Shown piece by piece: positions 17,936 through 31,098 of a DNA stretch of 64,000 nucleotides (the stretch's first letter is position 1; every line of letters begins with the position of its first letter). The stretch is from Candidatus Heimdallarchaeota archaeon (GTDB lineage Archaea > Asgardarchaeota > Heimdallarchaeia > JABLTI01). Location: the NCBI GenBank assembly GCA_018238155.1, contig JABCTZ010000019.1, positions 32,001 through 96,000 of the forward strand, in the 5' to 3' direction. Under the pieces are notes generated by a model. That model searched no databases. It was given only the letters and a program-made list of their open reading frames with translations, and had not been told where the DNA came from. The position numbers were made by a program, and so were the translations under genes.

Positions 17936-18829
17936 ATGCCAAAAGTTACGCAAAAAACCCAGAATCTCATTTGGGGAATATCGGTTAGTGTTGGAGTGCT
18001 AATGGCTACATTAGCTGCTCTTGTTTGGTTTGAAATATTTAATTCTGGTCCAATTACTGCAAGTGACTTTATAGCATTTGCAATACTATTTACAATAACA
18101 CCTCCATCAATTGCTGTATATATTGATGAAATTTGGAGAAGTGGAATTGATTCAAATTTACCCAATCTTCTCAGAGATATAGCTGATGCTCAAAGAACAG
18201 GATTATCTCTTCCAAGAGCAGTCACAGAATCCTCTAAGAGAAATTATGGTCCTCTTACTCCAGAGCTTAAAAAAATGGCTGCAAAAATCTCCTGGGGCAT
18301 TCCTTTTGATCAAGCTATGCGCTCTTTCACTGATGTTGCAGATACCGAACTAAATAATAGATCATCAATTCTGATACTGGAAGCTCAGCGGTCTGGTGGA
18401 GTTATTGAAGATATTTTTGAATCTGCACAAAAACATGTTGAAGATATATTAGGACTAAGAAAAGAACGTCTCGGTCAAATGAGACCATATATTTGGATAA
18501 TTTATGCTGCATTCATTATTTTCCTTCTGGTAATCGTAGTTCTGTTTCAGACATTCTTCTACCCAATGGCTTTAATGTATGAAAATTTCCAAGATAGTGG
18601 ACTTGGAGGAGTACAAATGGGTCTACCACCAACAGTACTTGAATCATATAAAACACTCTTCTTGCACATGACTATGATTGAGGGTCTTTTCAGTGGTTTA
18701 GTAGCTGGAAAAATGGGTGAAGGAAAAGCAAAAGCTGGTTTGAAGCATTCTACAATAATGGTTCTTATTGGTTGGATTACTTATAAATTGACAATTGAAT
18801 TACAAATCATTGTTATCCCTATAGGTTGA
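17936..18829 (+). CDS. Type IV pilus/T2SS F-family membrane platform protein (TadC/FlaJ-like)
   Basis: LPNLLRDIADAQRTGLSL..A, YGPLTPEL, ISWGIPF..A, SGG, GLFSGLVAGKMGEG...AGLKH. Confidence 0.9.
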   Translation: MPKVTQKTQNLIWGISVSVGVLMATLAALVWFEIFNSGPITASDFIAFAILFTITPPSIAVYIDEIWRSGIDSNLPNLLRDIADAQRTGLSLPRAVTESSKRNYGPLTPELKKMAAKISWGIPFDQAMRSFTDVADTELNNRSSILILEAQRSGGVIEDIFESAQKHVEDILGLRKERLGQMRPYIWIIYAAFIIFLLVIVVLFQTFFYPMALMYENFQDSGLGGVQMGLPPTVLESYKTLFLHMTMIEGLFSGLVAGKMGEGKAKAGLKHSTIMVLIGWITYKLTIELQIIVIPIG

Positions 18830-18833
18830 AAAG

Positions 18834-19256
18834 GTGAAATATTTGGCAAAAATAGACCAAGAAATAAATGAAATTAAGAAATCAGTTGCAAAATTAGATG
18901 ATAAGATAGGTAAATTGCAATTCTTTCTTGTGCAGATAATGAATAAACTAAATGAAGCTGCTGAATCTTCTGATGGTGGCAGTGTTGCAGCTGCTACTCA
19001 GGGAGCTGTTACAGTTGATATAACTCCCCTTGAAGATAGATTGGAACAATTATCAAAAGTAATGGTATCAAAGGCAGATTTAGTTCCTATTCAACAAGAG
19101 TTGGTAAAAATTCGCGATGAACGCATGAAGGAAGCTGAAGAAACAATTGATAATGTTACTGTATTATTAGAAAAAGGTTTGTCGTTAACGGAACTTGCTG
19201 CATCTCTTAAAGAAATTGAATCTCATCTCCAAGAAATTGTTGCACCACCAAAATAA
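18834..19256 (+). CDS. Hypothetical coiled-coil protein
   Basis: Heptad-rich ORF immediately after tadC; the start may be TTG 18843 behind AGGTGA. Confidence 0.6.
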   Translation: MKYLAKIDQEINEIKKSVAKLDDKIGKLQFFLVQIMNKLNEAAESSDGGSVAAATQGAVTVDITPLEDRLEQLSKVMVSKADLVPIQQELVKIRDERMKEAEETIDNVTVLLEKGLSLTELAASLKEIESHLQEIVAPPK

Positions 19257-19259
19257 TTT

Positions 19260-19281
19260 ACCGAGTGTATTACTTCTCGGT
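19260..19281 (+). terminator. Stem-loop followed by T-rich tract
   Basis: ACCGAG-n10-CTCGGT followed by TTCTTCTTCTTTTT, just after the 18834-19256 stop. Confidence 0.45.
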
Positions 19282-19354
19282 TTCTTCTTCTTTTTAGTAG
19301 ACTTTATTAACTATTGATTCTTCCTTTGGAATATAAAGAGTGAGCTGTTGATAA

Positions 19355-19630
19355 ATGAAAAGTGCAAGCCTAAGAGCAGAAAAGGGTGTTATAGAAGTAG
19401 AATTGGTTGTTGAAAAGAACACAATCATAGAACTAAAAATAACCGGTGATTTCTTCATTTACCCTGAGGAAGCTATTGAAGATATTGAACAAACAATAAT
19501 TGGTTGCTCTTCAAATGAAAAAGACATTAAAGCATGTTTAACTCAATTATATAAACAGAAATCGATTTCCACACCAGGAATCACAATAGATGATTGGGTT
19601 AAAGTGCTTATGATAGCAATTAACAAATAA
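19355..19630 (+). CDS. Stand-alone lipoate-protein ligase C-terminal domain (LplB-like)
   Basis: KG.IEV, LKITGDFFIYPEEAIEDIE...G, GIT.DD signature. Confidence 0.85.
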   Translation: MKSASLRAEKGVIEVELVVEKNTIIELKITGDFFIYPEEAIEDIEQTIIGCSSNEKDIKACLTQLYKQKSISTPGITIDDWVKVLMIAINK

Positions 19631-19667
19631 TCTAACAAAAAAAAATAATTTATCTCGAGGGAATGAT

Positions 19668-19940
19668 TTGAAAGTAAAATTCATTTTCAAAGGTTCGGTG
19701 TTTGAACAGAAAGAACCGATAGAATTAGATTTAGTTGAAAATTCAACTATTCTTGAAGCTCTAAATCTTGTAAGTGAAAAAAAACCAAAATTACATTCTT
19801 TACTCTTTAAAGACGGACAACTACGAAGTGATATATTGGTAATTGTGGATAAAACTGATGTCCTTTCAATGGGTTTGTTAGACTTTCAGCTTTCAAATAA
19901 TCAAGAAATAGTTATTCTTCCTTTGGCTCACGGTGGATGA
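19668..19940 (+). CDS. Urm1/SAMP/MoaD-like ubiquitin-fold protein
   Basis: Beta-grasp pattern, ILVIVDKTDV...LDFQL...EIVILPLAHGG with C-terminal HGG. Confidence 0.88.
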   Translation: MKVKFIFKGSVFEQKEPIELDLVENSTILEALNLVSEKKPKLHSLLFKDGQLRSDILVIVDKTDVLSMGLLDFQLSNNQEIVILPLAHGG

Positions 19941-22045
19941 ATATCCACATAACAAAAAAAGTATCTGGATTTGACAACTTGCATCAAGTAGAAAAAATTG
20001 CTCTATTAATGGAGAATCAAAAAAATATTCGTAACGTTGTTTTAGTTGCTCATATCGACCACGGGAAAACAACACTATCTGATTCCCTATTAGCCTCTGG
20101 TGGTATTTTAGCTCCTTCAACAGCAGGTGAAGCTCGAGCACTTGATTTTCTCCCTGAAGAGCAAAGGCGTGGAATTACCATGAAAACAGCAAATATATCT
20201 TTAATTTTCAAGCAAGCAAATGAAGATTATTTAGTCAATCTCATTGATAGTCCTGGTCATGTTGATTTCTCCGGGAAGGTAGCTCGTGCGCTGCGCATTG
20301 CTGATGGTGCAATAGTGGTAATTGATGCAGTAGAACAAGTTATGGCTCAAACTGAAACCGTTATTCGTCAATGTATTGCTGAAGGAGTAAAACCAATTCT
20401 TTTTATCAATAAAATAGACCGGCTTATCAAAGAATTAAAATTATCTGCACAACAGATAGCCGAGAGAATTGAGATAATTTACAATAATTTCAATTCACTT
20501 GTGAGTAAATTTTCCAAGGAGAAAATTTTGCCAAAGTGGCGTAGTTCTACTAGAGATGGTAGTGTGGTCTTTGGCTCTGCTTTGCATCGTTGGGCTATTT
20601 CTTTACCAATTGTAAAGGAAACTGATATCACCTTTGAAAAAATAATTGACCTTTACAATAAAAAAGAAGAAACGATATTGCAAGAACTCTTGCCTATTGA
20701 GAAACCACTAATTGAAATGATTATTGATCATTTGCCAAATCCAATTGAAGCTCAAAAATACCGTATACAGAAGATTTGGCGTGGTGATTTAAGTTCAAAC
20801 GTTGGGAAAGCAATGGTGGGATGTAAAGCTTCCGGAGAGGAGGATATTCCTTTAGTATTCTGCACAACAAAAACGTTGCGAGATCAACATGCAGGTTCAC
20901 TAGTTCTAGGAAGAATATTCTCTGGTGTGTTAACTGAAAAAACTGAAGTATTTTTAGTTAATTCAAATACAAAAGTGAAAATTCAAAATGCTTATGTTTT
21001 TATGGGTTCTGATAAAAAAAGGATTAATAATATTCCTGCAGGAAACACTGTTGCAGTTTCTGGTTTAGGCACAGTTCACCCAGGAGAAACAATCGCCAAT
21101 ATTTCATCAAAAGAACTTGTACCATTTGAGGATATAGAATATCTAGCAAATCCTGTAGTTACTATTGCCTTAGAACCAAAAATGTTGAGAGATTTACCTG
21201 TTCTAAAAAGAGCTCTTGAACGTTTTGATCTTGAAGATCCAAATCTAATTGTCACGATAGATGAAAAATCAGGTGAAATTCTATTACTCGGATTAGGTGA
21301 ACTTCATCTCGAGACCGTTGTGACAGATTTGTCTGAAGAGATAGCTTGTACAGTCTCTCCACCAATTGTAATCATTGCTGAGAGAATCAAGGCTTCCAGC
21401 AAAAAAATCGTTTCTGAAATGTTTGGCTCAAAAGTAAGTTTGTATGTGCACCCTATTAACAAAACACAAAAAACAATGACTGAGGAAAAAGAACAGCAAA
21501 ATTCTGCCGATGAACAAATATTTGTGGAGAAGTTCAAGCAATATAATAACGAATTAATTATACCTCAAAAGTTGATTTCAAAATTATCTTCTGAAGCAAA
21601 AGCAAATATTATCACTGGAGTCAAAGATGCACTGCATACTGGTCCTATTTCTTCAAAACATGTGTTTGGTGTTCGAGTAATAATTCATGATTTTATCACA
21701 GAGAGCGGAGAAAAATATGAACACACAGTGCCATTGTTACGAAATGCTGTCTGGGAAGCATTAAGAGATGGTAAAATAACTCCTCAAGAACCAGTTTATA
21801 GAATACAAATTACTACTCCAACAACTTATCTTGGAAAAATTACCTCAATATTAGGGAAACGTAGAGGAAGTATTGTTGATGTACGCACTGATCAGGATTT
21901 ACTAATTATAACAGGTGATTTGCCTGTAGCTGAATCATTTCACATTGATCATGATTTAAGATCCGACACAGAAGGAAGAGCATTTTGGCAAATGACCTTT
22001 GATAGATACGAGCCGATACCAAAAAAAAACGTTGAAAATTTCTGA
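19937..22045 (+). CDS. Elongation factor 2 paralog (aEF-2p-like), lacking diphthamide motif
   Basis: AHIDHGKTT, RGIT, DSPGHVDF, NKID, GSA, LGELHLE, C-terminal LRSDTEGRAFW; domain IV is shortened and has no HRG. Confidence 0.9.
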   Translation: MNIHITKKVSGFDNLHQVEKIALLMENQKNIRNVVLVAHIDHGKTTLSDSLLASGGILAPSTAGEARALDFLPEEQRRGITMKTANISLIFKQANEDYLVNLIDSPGHVDFSGKVARALRIADGAIVVIDAVEQVMAQTETVIRQCIAEGVKPILFINKIDRLIKELKLSAQQIAERIEIIYNNFNSLVSKFSKEKILPKWRSSTRDGSVVFGSALHRWAISLPIVKETDITFEKIIDLYNKKEETILQELLPIEKPLIEMIIDHLPNPIEAQKYRIQKIWRGDLSSNVGKAMVGCKASGEEDIPLVFCTTKTLRDQHAGSLVLGRIFSGVLTEKTEVFLVNSNTKVKIQNAYVFMGSDKKRINNIPAGNTVAVSGLGTVHPGETIANISSKELVPFEDIEYLANPVVTIALEPKMLRDLPVLKRALERFDLEDPNLIVTIDEKSGEILLLGLGELHLETVVTDLSEEIACTVSPPIVIIAERIKASSKKIVSEMFGSKVSLYVHPINKTQKTMTEEKEQQNSADEQIFVEKFKQYNNELIIPQKLISKLSSEAKANIITGVKDALHTGPISSKHVFGVRVIIHDFITESGEKYEHTVPLLRNAVWEALRDGKITPQEPVYRIQITTPTTYLGKITSILGKRRGSIVDVRTDQDLLIITGDLPVAESFHIDHDLRSDTEGRAFWQMTFDRYEPIPKKNVENF

Positions 22046-22143
22046 ACAATAAATCATTAACTAATAATTGACTATCTTTTTAAATCGAATTCAAACAAGT
22101 TAAATTAGAATCGAAAATTATTTTCTGTATCATTTGAACTTAG

Positions 22144-22800
22144 GTGAACAATAAGGTGCAAAATGAAGATGATTTAGGAAAAACAGTGGATCTTGAGGAT
22201 AATTTAGCTCGTATGATTCTAATAGAACAAGCTGTTGATGCTGCATATGAAATTAAAGACAAAGTAGCAAGAAGTTATGCTTTCTGTGATTGTATTATTG
22301 GAATTATTGAATATGCTCGAGAGATAAACAAAGAAGATACCTTAGAAAAAATACCTGCTCTTTTTACTGAAATAACTAATAAAGGTGCATATGTTCGAGC
22401 ACAGAGTTTCTATGCAATTGCTTTAGCTTCTTTCGGACATGAAGATGAGGCAGAAAATGTTCTCTTGGAATCAATCAAAAATTCTATCAAAATAAAAGAC
22501 GACTTTGATAGAAGAGATGCAATACTTGATATCACGACGGCTGCTGGCGATATGTCATTTCTCTTAGATAAAAACGAATTAATAACTACAGCATTGAATC
22601 TCGCTGAGAATTTAACTAAGGCGCAAATGGCCTATCTTTATGGGTATTTGTCTGTAATTCTATCTGGTGAAGAAAGCACTTCATTAATTAGTAAAGCCGT
22701 GGATATTGCAAATAGTATCCGTGATCCAATAGCTAGATCTAAAGTTTATTTGGAATTGTCAAGTCTCTCAACAAATCTTGACAGAACATTTGAAGAGTAG
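22144..22800 (+). CDS. Hypothetical alpha-helical repeat protein
   Basis: Repeated A..I.D...R..A motifs (AYEIKDKVARSYA, SIKIKDDFDRRDA, ANSIRDPIARSKV). Confidence 0.65.
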   Translation: MNNKVQNEDDLGKTVDLEDNLARMILIEQAVDAAYEIKDKVARSYAFCDCIIGIIEYAREINKEDTLEKIPALFTEITNKGAYVRAQSFYAIALASFGHEDEAENVLLESIKNSIKIKDDFDRRDAILDITTAAGDMSFLLDKNELITTALNLAENLTKAQMAYLYGYLSVILSGEESTSLISKAVDIANSIRDPIARSKVYLELSSLSTNLDRTFEE

Positions 22801-22807
22801 AACAATA

Positions 22808-23500
22808 TCAAAATCGTACTATTCTTCTTCCTGTTTTTGGAGTAAAAGCTATCGCGAAGGCATTTCGAATATCATAGAAATCAATCGGTTTAATTTTTGG
22901 AATAGTTTTATGTTTTCTAAGTGCTTCTAAGATTTCCTCTTCAGTTCGCACACCATTAGTATCAACCAATGTATAACAAGTACCAATAGCTTTAGCAAAA
23001 TGAGCATCAGACCCTCCCACTCTGCCAAAACTTTTATGTCGAAAAGAAACTTCAGCCATATAGTTGGGAAAATTGAAAAAGATTTTTGCAAATCCATTAT
23101 AGAACTCCATAGCATCAGCTTTAACAATGTAGGATTTCCATCCAATACTATTATGTGACATTAATGGATGAGGTATAATAGATACTCCTCCTAAATCGCG
23201 TATTATTTCGACTGTTTCTTCTGCGGAGCGGTCTCTTGGGATCTCTTGGTTAATTCCATATGCAACTAAATGACCATCAGCAGTATCAATTTCTACGCCT
23301 GCAAAGTAAACTTTCTTCTTATCTTTCTCTCTAAATTTATCAACAATTTTTTTAGCAAATCGAAAATCATTATGTGTAAGAATACCGACTCCATCTATGC
23401 TTCGAGCACGTAAAACATTTGGTATTTCCCAATATTTAACTCGTTCATCAACATGGACGTGAAAATCAATTGAGAGGTTAACATTTTCATGTTTGGTCAT
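22808..23500 (-). CDS. PHP-domain metallophosphoesterase
   Basis: DFHVH, THND, GVEI...GH, PHP, E.YNG, GGSDAH; start taken at the internal Met (MTKHENV). Confidence 0.88.
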   Translation of the reverse strand: MTKHENVNLSIDFHVHVDERVKYWEIPNVLRARSIDGVGILTHNDFRFAKKIVDKFREKDKKKVYFAGVEIDTADGHLVAYGINQEIPRDRSAEETVEIIRDLGGVSIIPHPLMSHNSIGWKSYIVKADAMEFYNGFAKIFFNFPNYMAEVSFRHKSFGRVGGSDAHFAKAIGTCYTLVDTNGVRTEEEILEALRKHKTIPKIKPIDFYDIRNAFAIAFTPKTGRRIVRF

Positions 23501-23628
23501 AGTAGATATTACTTTGATAATTGCCTTTTGAAACTTTTTACACAAACCGACAATTCTCAAATAGTAGGGAAACGCTTTTCAGTAAACAAGTTCTCTGTTG
23601 TACTATCAGTTTAATGAGTGTAATAAAA

Positions 23629-23829
23629 ATGGTCATTAAAGTCGTAGAAATAATTGGCTCTTCCGATAAAAGTTGGGAAGATGCTGCAAGAAATGCTGTT
23701 GAAGATGCCTCTAAATCTCTTCGTGGGGTTACAGGTGTAGATGTTGTTAATTTTACTGCTACTGTGAAAAATGGTAAAATTGTGAAATACAAAGCTTGCT
23801 GTAAACTAGCTTTTTCAGTTGAAGACTAG
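23629..23829 (+). CDS. Dodecin-family flavin-binding protein
   Basis: MVIKVVEIIGSSDKSWEDAARNAVEDASKSLR...KYKA..KLAF; 66 aa from ATG 23629. Confidence 0.92.
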   Translation: MVIKVVEIIGSSDKSWEDAARNAVEDASKSLRGVTGVDVVNFTATVKNGKIVKYKACCKLAFSVED

Positions 23830-23861
23830 TTAGCTAGTTAGATTAAAGTACAGAAAGTCTT

Positions 23862-23879
23862 GAAGGGATAAATCCCTTC
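23862..23879 (+). terminator. Stem-loop downstream of dodecin
   Basis: GAAGGGA-TAAA-TCCCTTC perfect 7-bp stem followed by T-rich sequence. Confidence 0.5.
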
Positions 23880-23979
23880 TTGTCTATTTTTTCCAAAATA
23901 TTTGGAAATACTTTAAGTTATCTCTCTACTGATAATTTTAAAGCAGGTAATAAACAGAAAATTTGGATGCAATTTTATT

Positions 23980-25950
23980 ATGAGTAAATTTGTTTTAGCT
24001 GAGGGTCTCATACCAATGGGTGATCAACCAAGAGCTATAAAGGCTCTCGTTGATGGATTAAATAAGGGATTACGATACCAAATTTTAGAAGGTGTAACAG
24101 GTTCTGGAAAAACCTTCTCAGTTGCAAATATTATAGAACAGATTCAGAAACCGACTCTCGTTCTCTCTCCAAACAAGACATTAGCTGCACAATTATGCTC
24201 AGATTTCAGACGTTATTTCCCTGATAATGCAGTTGAGTATTTTGTGTCTTACTATGATTATTATCAACCTGAAGCATATGTTCCAAGATCAGATTCTTAC
24301 ATTGCAAAAGAGACTTCGATAAACGAAGAAATCGAAAAAATGAGACATTCAACTACTCATTCCCTTGCCACACGGAATGATGTTATTGTTGTTGCAAGTG
24401 TGTCAGCAATTTACGGTTTAGGCGCACCACGATCGTACAGAACAAAGCTTTCACTTGTGAAGGGAATGAAAATAAAGCGTCAAGAATTTCTCCGAAGACT
24501 TGTTGTTCTTCAATTTGAACGAAATGATTTTGAAATCAAACGAGGTACTTTTCGAGCTAAAGGCGATACCATCGAAATTTTTCCACCACACTCAGATAAG
24601 AGCACTATCCGAATAGAGATGTTTGGTGATGAAATTGAAAAAATAACTGAAAATGAGTTTCCTACAGGCAATAAAATTCAAGAAATCGAATCCTATGAAG
24701 TATATCCTGCTTCTCATTTTATGACAGAAGATGAATCACTAGAAAAACATGCAGTAAGAATTGAAGAAGAGCTTGAAAAACGCATCAAATACTTTAAAGA
24801 AAATGATCTCCTTCTTGAGGCTCAAAGGATAGAAGAAAGAACAAGATATGATATTGAGATGCTTCGATCTGTTGGGTACTGCTCTGGAATCGAAAATTAC
24901 TCGATGTATTTTGACGGAAGAAAAGTGGGGGAAAGACCCTTTGTATTACTAGATCATTTTCCTGATGATTTTTTAATGGTAATCGATGAATCTCATATAA
25001 CTATACCTCAAACCAATGGAATGTACGGTGGAGATCGTTCCCGGAAAAAAACATTAATTGAATATGGTTTTCGTCTTCCAACTGCTCTGGAGAATCGCCC
25101 TCTCAAATTTAATGAATTTGAATCTTTCATGCGTAAAACTATTTTTACATCTGCAACACCAGGTCCGTTTGAACTAGAACACGCCGAATTAGTAGCAGAA
25201 CAAATTATTCGTCCAACGGGATTAGTAGATCCCGAAATAATAATTAAACCAATTGAACATCAAATAGATGTGGTGCTTGATCAGATCAAATTAAGAACAG
25301 CAAAAAATGAACGAACATTAGTGACTACATTAACTAAAAGAATGGCTGAAGAATTATCAGAGTATCTTATTGAGAAAGGTATTAAAGCCCATTATATTCA
25401 TTCTGAAGTTCACACAATTGATAGAGTAGCAATTTTACGTGACCTCAGAAAGGGAAAATATGATGTACTTGTGGGAATAAATTTACTAAGAGAAGGACTT
25501 GATTTACCTGAAGTATCGTTAGTGATGATTTTAGATGCTGATAAAGAAGGCTTTCTCCGTTCCGTTCGTTCCCTTACACAGATAATTGGTCGTGCATCAA
25601 GGAATATTAATGGAAGGGTAATTCTTTTCGCTGACAAGATGACCAATTCAATAAAACGCACAGTTGAAGGTAATAATCGTAGAAGGCGTATTCAAATTGC
25701 TTACAATAGAAAACACAATATTACTCCTAAAACAATTCAAAAATCACTAGAAAATATTACTGATAGTTTATTGAAAATTGAAACGATTTCAGCAAAGAAA
25801 GTTAAAGAATTGGCTCAAATGGAGGAGAGTGATCTTGTTTTGGTCCTTATGGAATTGAAAGAACAAATGAGAGATGCAGCTCAAAAACTTGAATTTGAAA
25901 AAGCAGCAGAACTTCGTGATTTAATACGTGAAATTGAGGGCAATAATTAG
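23980..25950 (+). CDS. uvrB: Excinuclease ABC subunit B
   Basis: GDQP.AI, GVTGSGKT, YFVSYYDYYQPEAY beta-hairpin, IDESH, SATPG, GINLLREGLDLPEV, IGRA.RN, C-terminal UVR domain. Confidence 0.97.
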   Translation: MSKFVLAEGLIPMGDQPRAIKALVDGLNKGLRYQILEGVTGSGKTFSVANIIEQIQKPTLVLSPNKTLAAQLCSDFRRYFPDNAVEYFVSYYDYYQPEAYVPRSDSYIAKETSINEEIEKMRHSTTHSLATRNDVIVVASVSAIYGLGAPRSYRTKLSLVKGMKIKRQEFLRRLVVLQFERNDFEIKRGTFRAKGDTIEIFPPHSDKSTIRIEMFGDEIEKITENEFPTGNKIQEIESYEVYPASHFMTEDESLEKHAVRIEEELEKRIKYFKENDLLLEAQRIEERTRYDIEMLRSVGYCSGIENYSMYFDGRKVGERPFVLLDHFPDDFLMVIDESHITIPQTNGMYGGDRSRKKTLIEYGFRLPTALENRPLKFNEFESFMRKTIFTSATPGPFELEHAELVAEQIIRPTGLVDPEIIIKPIEHQIDVVLDQIKLRTAKNERTLVTTLTKRMAEELSEYLIEKGIKAHYIHSEVHTIDRVAILRDLRKGKYDVLVGINLLREGLDLPEVSLVMILDADKEGFLRSVRSLTQIIGRASRNINGRVILFADKMTNSIKRTVEGNNRRRRIQIAYNRKHNITPKTIQKSLENITDSLLKIETISAKKVKELAQMEESDLVLVLMELKEQMRDAAQKLEFEKAAELRDLIREIEGNN

Positions 25951-29960: not shown

Positions 29961-30167
29961 TTATCCTCCTTTAAGGATAGGGAGAACAATAATTTCATCA
30001 TTTTTCTCAACAAATTGGTCGAGATTATCTACTCTTTCACAATTTATTAAAACAATATGACGTTCGATATCGCTGACACCTTCAGCTTCTAGAAATCCTC
30101 TCAACACAATCCTCTCTTCAGGTACATATTTCATTATACTACTTTTTATACGTCCAGTACCGCTCAT
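29961..30167 (-). CDS. Small MoaD/ThiS/SAMP-like ubiquitin-fold protein
   Basis: IVLIN..RV......V..NDEIIVLPILKGG with C-terminal GG. Confidence 0.8.
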   Translation of the reverse strand: MSGTGRIKSSIMKYVPEERIVLRGFLEAEGVSDIERHIVLINCERVDNLDQFVEKNDEIIVLPILKGG

Positions 30168-30333: not shown

Positions 30334-30921
30334 CTAAGTGGGTTTTGAAGTGGAAACTCTGGGAATATTACGATTAGCACGGCGGGTTTTTGTTGTAAGA
30401 ATTTGATCATGAATCCATTGAAATGCTTCGTAAATACCTAGACCAGTTTGTGCACTTGTATTTTGTACATGAATTGTTCTTTCAAACATTGTTGTGAGAT
30501 GAAAATTTTGAATAATATAGGCAAGAGAGCAGACATTATTCATATCTTGCTTAGTGGCTAAAATCAAAATGGGAATATTTGGTGTACAATAATTTTCTAC
30601 TGCTTCGTGGAAAATCTCTCTCGCTAAAGATAATCTTTGAATATCACTTGAATCAAGGACAAAAATGAGTATATCTGCTCGTTCAATATATCCTGGCCAA
30701 AACTGCCGGAAAATTTGTTGGCCTCCTAAATCCATTATTGAAAGTTCTAATTTACCTAGTTTCAATCTCTCAAAATTGACACCCATAGTAGCTAGACTTT
30801 CACTGGGCTCACCATTCTTCAAATAATTAAGAATTGATGTTTTTCCTGCATTATCTAACCCACACATAGCAATATTGACTTTTTTATCAAATTTTCTAAA
30901 CAATTTTGAAAGAATGCCCAT
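30334..30921 (-). CDS. Arf-family small GTPase
   Basis: GLDNAGKT (G1), TMGVN (G2), DLGGQ (G3), W..Y, TKQD (G4), TSAQTG.GI.E.F.W (G5); likely start MGILSKLFRKF at 30921. Confidence 0.92.
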   Translation of the reverse strand: MGILSKLFRKFDKKVNIAMCGLDNAGKTSILNYLKNGEPSESLATMGVNFERLKLGKLELSIMDLGGQQIFRQFWPGYIERADILIFVLDSSDIQRLSLAREIFHEAVENYCTPNIPILILATKQDMNNVCSLAYIIQNFHLTTMFERTIHVQNTSAQTGLGIYEAFQWIHDQILTTKTRRANRNIPRVSTSKPT

Positions 30922-31098
30922 TCTAAATTCATCCTGATCTTCCATTGATCAAATGTTTTCGGTTGCAATAAAAGATAAAAAAAATACCTTATAAACACCA
31001 CAAAAAATGACTTGTGGAATACAAAACTCGCATTACATGAATTAACATAAGGAAAAAGTAATGGTCCCATTATTTTGAGACCAAAGGAAAATTTCTCT

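Follow-up and report, generated by a model that had tools for sequence, protein, structure and literature searches.

A ubiquitin-like modifier gene next to an EF-2 paralog gene in a Heimdallarchaeia genome: four neighboring genes with probably separate functions

Does a gene for a small ubiquitin-like protein (Ubl) whose stop codon runs into the gene for a non-canonical elongation factor 2 (EF-2) paralog belong to a translation-linked system? The question is raised by four neighboring genes in the genome of a Candidatus Heimdallarchaeota archaeon. They lie in the window, which is the whole stretch of 64,000 nt that was analyzed (contig C17:32001-96000). The genome contains 4.08 Mb and is 90.7% complete. 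The original prediction named the genes as a stand-alone lipoate-protein ligase domain (LplB), a Urm1-like modifier, an EF-2 paralog, and a helical repeat protein, and it proposed a translation-linked modification or quality-control module. We found that the four genes all belong to known kinds. They are probably housekeeping or accessory genes with separate functions, possibly co-transcribed, that do not form a dedicated system.

The four co-oriented open reading frames (ORFs) were confirmed. They are found on the plus strand at 19355-19630, 19668-19940, 19937-22045, and 22144-22800 and encode 91, 90, 702 (counted from the ATG), and 218 aa, respectively. Domain and fold calls agreed with the naming, with the modifier as a GG-terminated beta-grasp protein of the SAMP/Urm1 type. 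The EF-2 paralog is referred to below as aEF-2p. The features of the locus are as follows (window positions).

19260-19295, plus strand: weak hairpin and T-rich tract (T5 at 19291-19295) between a coiled-coil gene and lplB, read from the sequence
19355-19630, plus strand: lplB-like gene, stand-alone C-terminal domain of lipoate-protein ligase, 91 aa, PF10437
19668-19940, plus strand: SAMP/Urm1/MoaD-type beta-grasp protein, 90 aa, TTG start after GAGGG, C-terminus LAHGG
19937-19978, plus strand: 14-codon in-frame extension of the paralog frame that begins at the ATG of ATGA, not conserved
19979-22045, plus strand: aEF-2p, EF-2 paralog lacking the diphthamide loop; TTG 19979 as likely start, giving 688 aa
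22077-22085, plus strand: T5 run (22077-22081) and TTTAAAT element in the 98-nt spacer after aEF-2p (sequence reading)
22144-22800, plus strand: alpha-helical repeat (TPR/HEAT-like) protein, 214-218 aa, start at GTG 22144 or GTG 22156

Gene order and the stop/start junction

The genome belongs to a family of the Heimdallarchaeia labeled f1, which comprises two genera. Families f2, f4, and f6 are the other Heimdall families compared. Orthologues of the modifier (45-87% identical) were retrieved from 9 of the 11 other f1 genomes searched. The order FlaJ/TadC, coiled-coil, LplB, Ubl, aEF-2p is intact in all nine. It forms part of a collinear block of more than 14 kb in this family, which contains three pilin genes, FlaJ/TadC, coiled-coil, LplB, Ubl, aEF-2p, the helical repeat gene, PHP, dodecin, UvrB, and a gene for a 616-aa protein. 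Because this whole neighborhood is collinear in f1, the conservation of the lplB-Ubl-aEF-2p trio is no more than background synteny. Genome G007 keeps the order only as far as aEF-2p; its helical, PHP, dodecin, and UvrB genes are located elsewhere.

The genes next to aEF-2p differ in families f2, f4, and f6, where S10, an Orc1/Cdc6-like gene, and a PHP gene were found. The search was extended to 39 EF-2/aEF-2p loci in 24 other Asgard genomes from 19 families, with flanks of 1.5 kb. No credible Ubl was found at these loci with Ubl hidden Markov models (HMMs) or among small GG-ending ORFs. The adjacency is thus not unique to this genome, and it is confined to one family. A recurrence of Ubl and aEF-2p beyond general synteny was not found.

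The nearest homologues of the modifier in other Heimdall families fall into two groups. Proteins of the "...IIPISHGG" group match only the Urm1_like model, and their genes adjoin a topoisomerase IA gene. Proteins of the "FGQIR...IIPFVAGG" group pass the moaD_arch model and are encoded near Ras-family GTPase or TPP-enzyme genes. In family f2 (L016:510-3210, L017, and L018), the IIPISHGG proteins are 93-96 aa long. They are flanked by topoisomerase IA (Toprim and Topoisom_bac) and by a conserved protein of 293-314 aa without a Pfam family (MRYLEV...WLWKGS).

The ATGA at 19937-19940, in which the stop codon of the modifier overlaps an ATG of the paralog, is present in the sequence. It was not found in the relatives. 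In 9 of 9 family relatives, 25-50 nt separate the TAA or TGA stop of the modifier gene from the ATG at which the paralog starts. This ATG aligns with TTG 19979 of the window (MSLIEKIS... or MSQVKKIA... in relatives and LHQVEKIA... in the window). The paralog frame 5' of the aligned ATG is closed by stops in all nine, including one relative with an 89% identical paralog. The M1 at the position of TTG 19979 is nearly invariant in an alignment of 26 family members, and the consensus N terminus begins there. Several relatives contain a GGAG- or GGTG-like motif, which resembles a Shine-Dalgarno sequence, 9-14 nt before the paralog ATG.

Because the conserved start lies downstream and the upstream frame is closed, the ATG in the window appears to be a by-product of the junction between a GGA (Gly) codon and the TGA stop. 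The start at the overlapping ATG that had been proposed gives way to TTG 19979, which the comparative data favor. aEF-2p likely starts there, with 688 aa and a 38-nt spacer to the modifier gene. The extension at 19937-19978 is probably not translated, or it is species-specific. The overlap itself is probably not functional, and translational coupling of the two genes is not borne out by this comparison. A conserved stop/start overlap, which would mark a coupled Ubl/aEF-2p pair, is absent from all nine relatives.

The EF-2 paralog and the modifier

By its domain and loop content, the paralog is the already described aEF-2p. It contains the Pfam domains GTP_EFTU (the G domain), domain II, EFG_III, and EFG_C (domain V) and has no EFG_IV match. 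It scores 599.6 bits to the aEF-2 model TIGR00490, which is under the cut-off of 738. The loop HDFITESGEK-YEH is found where aEF-2 proteins have HxDPAHTG. The reading of this gene as a non-canonical EF-2 is therefore confirmed. The true aEF-2 of the genome is encoded on contig C42:22810-24852. It is 744 aa long, is 32% identical to aEF-2p, and has both EFG_IV and the DPAHTG loop. Dph2 (PF01866) was not found in the genome, a provisional result at 90.7% completeness.

Loops were aligned for 42 EF-2 family proteins from 24 Asgard genomes. The long copies have HxDPAHTG or a close variant, and the second copies all lack it. The canonical form, HEDPVHRG, was seen in one Heimdall genome from another family. 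Matches with 41-45% identity that are annotated "elongation factor EF-2" were considered as canonical EF-2 and rejected. The loop alignment identifies them as aEF-2p of other Asgard families.

Asgard archaea without dph genes encode an aEF-2 with R702 changed to Thr and an aEF-2p that lacks the HxDxxHRG loop and a second loop (Narrowe et al. 2018, Genome Biol Evol, PMC6143161). The gene context is not discussed in that description, and no further paper mentioning aEF-2p was found in the literature searched. The protein studied here shares with the described aEF-2p the five-domain EF-2 architecture, the intact G domain, and the loss of the HxDxxHRG loop. Its genome resembles those genomes in the coexisting aEF-2 with the R-to-T change (AHTG) and in the non-detection of Dph2. 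Proteins of the f1 clade of aEF-2p (at least 59% identity) are shorter (about 680-690 aa), with a domain IV so diverged that Pfam EFG_IV does not match it. The EFG_IV model still matches the aEF-2p of other Asgard families, which are 41-45% identical to the f1 copy. aEF-2p is a GTPase that has lost the decoding-center loops of domain IV, described from Asgard archaea without diphthamide synthesis.

The modifier sequence runs ...SDILVIVDKTDVLSMGLLDFQLSNNQEIVILPLAHGG, and the residues quoted in the original prediction, up to the LAHGG end, are confirmed. The modifier passes PF02597 (ThiS) with 23.2 bits (cut-off, 22.5). It falls just below the gathering threshold of Urm1 PF09138 (21.3 bits; threshold, 21.8). 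It fails the NCBIfam models Urm1_like NF053661 (28.4 bits; cut-off, 70), SAMP1 NF041918 (31.6 bits; cut-off, 60), and moaD_arch TIGR01687 (21.9 bits; cut-off, 49.5). The AlphaFold2 (AF2) model has a predicted local distance difference test (pLDDT) value of 93 and shows a beta-grasp fold with a free C-terminal GG. The best Foldseek match is Haloferax volcanii SAMP1, with a template modeling (TM) score of 0.85. Urm1 proteins follow at 0.76-0.79, and then MoaD and CysO. In a profile search against PDB sequences, CysO, a MoaD-related protein, and Methanosarcina acetivorans SAMP1 ranked over Sulfolobus, mouse, and yeast Urm1. Profile-profile comparison with hhalign gave 104 to the Heimdall MoaD/SAMP1-like group and 76 to the Urm1_like group. 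A word-based protein search retrieved 12 close relatives only, and NCBI names the close homologues "MoaD/ThiS family protein."

H88-G89-G90 is invariant in eight modifier orthologues, and the start position is common to the orthologues, as ATG, GTG, or TTG. The orthologue from genome G010 (L008:1489-1776) ends LAHGGGL, with residues added past the diglycine motif. This end could mark a precursor that needs C-terminal processing, or it could reflect a recent stop-codon shift.

The modifier fits no single subfamily. It resembles H. volcanii SAMP1 and archaeal MoaD (PDB 3PO0; NF041918; TIGR01687) in the TM score, length, beta-grasp fold, and free GG. It differs from the Heimdall MoaD/SAMP1-like proteins in ending HGG where they end (A/S)GG. 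It also differs from SAMP1 and MoaD in scoring below both curated cut-offs and in the lack of a detected MoaE partner in its genome. It resembles the Urm1 of eukaryotes and Sulfolobus in the HGG end, the beta-grasp fold, and the TM scores to mouse, yeast, and Chaetomium Urm1. The genome, like those with Urm1 systems, also encodes a thiolase of the Ncs6/NcsA type and an E1 similar to Uba4/UbaA. In sister Heimdall families, the MoaD/SAMP1-like proteins are nearer to the modifier than the HGG-ending Urm1_like proteins are. The modifier thus leans to SAMP1 and archaeal MoaD over Urm1. The prediction of a Urm1-like protein stands for the fold and the GG end and does not extend to the Urm1 family in the strict sense. 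On the simplest reading, the protein would work like Urm1/SAMP.

This gene encodes the only SAMP/Urm1-type protein of about 90 aa found in the genome, and HMMs of both Heimdall groups match this gene alone. Two shorter GG-ending proteins were found, a ThiS-like protein of 76 aa on contig C3 and a protein of 68 aa at 29961-30167 of the window. Contig C41 encodes an NcsA-like tRNA 2-thiolase (215 bits to NF047749, below the equivalog cut-off). The genome contains three ThiF-type E1 proteins, one encoded on contig C1 and two on contig C13. One of the three matches the MoeB, ThiF, and UbaA models at about 190-200 bits. The E1-like and NcsA-like genes are unlinked to the modifier gene. MoaE (PF02391) was not found in this 90.7% complete genome and was detected in control genomes.

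The LAHGG protein would be the general SAMP/Urm1-type sulfur carrier and protein modifier of the genome. From these partner genes, we infer which E1 and which sulfur acceptor it uses. It would be activated by an unlinked E1-like adenylyltransferase. It would most likely feed sulfur to the NcsA-like tRNA 2-thiolase, and it may also be conjugated to proteins.

Other Ubl-related genes were observed. The 68-aa ORF at 29961-30167 (minus strand) ends PILKGG and matches the ThiS HMM with an E value of only 0.25. An Arf-family GTPase gene at 30334-30945 (minus strand; PF00025, 144 bits) lies 166 nt upstream of it. The genes for a MoaD/SAMP1-like GG protein and a Ras-family GTPase are adjacent in another Heimdall family (L030:1498-1785 and 1852-2412; PF00071, 160 bits). 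Ubl genes may recurrently pair with small GTPase genes. Contig C13 of the window's genome (G000) contains a cluster (L035:787-3607) of a Prok-JAB protein of 211 aa, a ThiF-type E1 of 284 aa, and proteins of 103 and 259 aa without Pfam matches. This cluster may be a separate ubiquitin-like conjugation cassette.

The lipoate ligase subunit, the helical repeat gene, and transcript boundaries

The lplB-like gene encodes a protein that passes PF10437 (50.5 bits, 2e-13; cut-off, 24). It scores 57.8 bits to the LplB model NF053749, slightly short of the cut-off (65). No second stand-alone LplB was found in the genome, and among the 81 Heimdallarchaeia genomes sampled, stand-alone LplB is confined to family f1. 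The other sampled families of the class have this C-terminal domain only in a fused LplA (364-390 aa). Family f1 thus seems to have evolved or acquired the split ligase on its own.

The genome also encodes a fused LplA with its own C-terminal domain (contig C15, 369 aa) and a catalytic-only LplA (contig C19, 266 aa). The best NCBIfam match of the catalytic-only protein is LplA_large, "lipoate-protein ligase large subunit," at 175.9 bits, which is under the cut-off. Close orthologues of it (63-90% identity) were found in 9 of 10 other genomes of the same genus. Three GcvH proteins are encoded as lipoyl acceptors. The lplB gene and the C19 lplA gene are on different contigs and not adjacent.

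A split LplA/LplB lipoate-protein ligase is known from Thermoplasma acidophilum (NF053749 and NF053750). The proteins here resemble it in the stand-alone C-terminal domain of about 90 aa and the separate catalytic subunit of about 266 aa. They differ in that the genes are on separate contigs and that neither protein reaches its NCBIfam cut-off. A role as the small subunit of a split lipoate-protein ligase accounts best for LplB. We infer that it pairs with the C19 LplA as the large subunit. This ligase would lipoylate the GcvH-type acceptors of the genome. An accessory role of the domain for another lysine-conjugating enzyme, as had been suggested, is unnecessary because the catalytic-only, LplA_large-like LplA and three GcvH proteins are present.

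The fourth gene would encode a small TPR/HEAT-like solenoid. No Pfam or NCBIfam family matched the protein. The AF2 model has a pLDDT of 88 and contains 10 helices in a solenoid. Fold matches were weak, with TM scores of about 0.5 to Ton1535, the C-terminal region of VPS35, and BtubC. No Foldseek match in the PDB was obtained at an E value of 0.001 or below. The language-model neighbors are TPR clusters. The gene is kept 3' of aEF-2p in four f1 genomes with enough downstream sequence. In a fifth, a contig end cuts it off so that only part is seen, and in G007 it is missing from this position.

Downstream, a PHP-domain gene at 22808-23560 (minus strand) lies tail-to-tail with the helical gene. 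A PHP-like ORF (HLHSEYSWDS...) was also observed directly upstream of aEF-2p in a Heimdall genome of family f4 (L042:797-1435). The presence of PHP near aEF-2p in both families is probably a coincidence. A dodecin ORF follows at 23521-23829 (plus strand). It has a TTG start and encodes 102 aa, with the Pfam domain at residues 38-101. Its relatives align only from about residue 14-36, and in the long form the ORF overlaps the oppositely oriented PHP gene. The listed dodecin ORF is probably too long.

Oligo-T is an archaeal termination signal. The hairpin and T-rich tract at 19260-19295 likely form a transcript boundary; the hairpin folds with -8.4 kcal/mol and a z-score of only -1.4. The T5 run and TTTAAAT element at 22077-22085 may act as a terminator and as a promoter for the gene that follows. 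A scan for sigma-70 promoters and intrinsic terminators returned counts at the shuffle level, with a model that is not informative for an archaeon. An Rfam scan of 18000-24000 returned no family at threshold.

Separate functions and the alternatives

The preferred reading, four genes with separate functions, was weighed against a family-specific operon with a real functional link. In such an operon, the genome's only SAMP/Urm1-type carrier and aEF-2p would act as a translation-fidelity pair, or aEF-2p would be the preferred conjugation target of the carrier. We consider this unlikely. The original prediction of a translation-linked Urm1/EF-2p module is unsupported, as the pairing occurs only in f1, inside a collinear block to which it adds no signal, and the stop/start overlap is not conserved among relatives. 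The Ubl is absent from the aEF-2p locus of every other aEF-2p-bearing Asgard family examined, and the cluster contains no E1, JAMM protease, or NcsA gene. A literature search found no paper linking Urm1/SAMP to aEF-2p. A complex prediction for aEF-2p (688 aa, 26-row alignment) and the Ubl (8-row alignment) scored 0.00 against a mark of 0.32, which counts neither for nor against binding. Several points weigh against separate functions. The spacers are short and without a T5 run (LplB to Ubl, 37 nt; Ubl to aEF-2p, 38 nt), and T-rich tracts flank the trio, so lplB, Ubl, and aEF-2p may share one mRNA, which would allow co-regulation. A three-gene transcript is plausible on these signals. The Shine-Dalgarno-like motifs in relatives and the presence of an NcsA-like thiolase with Dph2 not found are also consistent with a link. 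The three genes remain together in genomes whose Ubl is as little as 45% identical, and also in G007, in which the order after them breaks. Family f1 alone has the stand-alone LplB, the single Ubl, and this gene order, so a lineage-specific link is possible. The partner-gene assignments all rest on HMM scores under curated cut-offs, and the non-detection of MoaE and Dph2 is provisional at this completeness. The fuller form of the link is quite improbable. It would place the single carrier of f1 in one transcript with aEF-2p, the two working jointly for translation fidelity, the carrier in tRNA s2U34 thiolation and aEF-2p as a non-translocase EF-2 in a lineage without diphthamide, or it would make aEF-2p a dedicated conjugation target.

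Two other explanations concern single genes, and both are very unlikely. The modifier could be MoaD, the small subunit of molybdopterin synthase, without a modifier role. The hhalign scores, the NCBI name of the close homologues, and the CysO and MoaD-related PDB profile matches point this way, and the original prediction had named grouping with MoaD as evidence against its reading. The modifier is slightly closer to archaeal MoaD/SAMP1 than to Urm1, but a molybdopterin role is unlikely because MoaE, detected in the control genomes, was not found here. The moaD_arch score is also less than half of its cut-off, and SAMP1, the best structural match, is bifunctional. Similarly, LplB could partner the neighboring Ubl in place of LplA, perhaps serving as accessory domain to an adenylating or conjugating enzyme that does not act on lipoate. 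It is unlinked to lplA, it sits 37 nt upstream of the Ubl gene, and in the sampled class stand-alone LplB was seen only in the family with the LplB-Ubl arrangement. Against this stand the catalytic-only LplA conserved in the same genus, the lipoyl acceptors, and the near-threshold score to the LplB model. We know of no system that uses LplB with a Ubl-type partner or a non-lipoate conjugating enzyme.

With the genes read as having separate functions, the pairing of Ubl and aEF-2p reflects a gene order local to one family, and what looks like translational coupling arises by chance from the GGA-TGA junction. A partner gene conserved with aEF-2p would have offered a useful clue to its function. 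The Ubl neighbor is no such clue across the Asgard archaea. If a link between the carrier and aEF-2p were true, it would be the first functional handle on aEF-2p. For annotation, the start of aEF-2p is corrected to TTG 19979, and family f1 has a single SAMP/Urm1-type protein and a split LplA/LplB.

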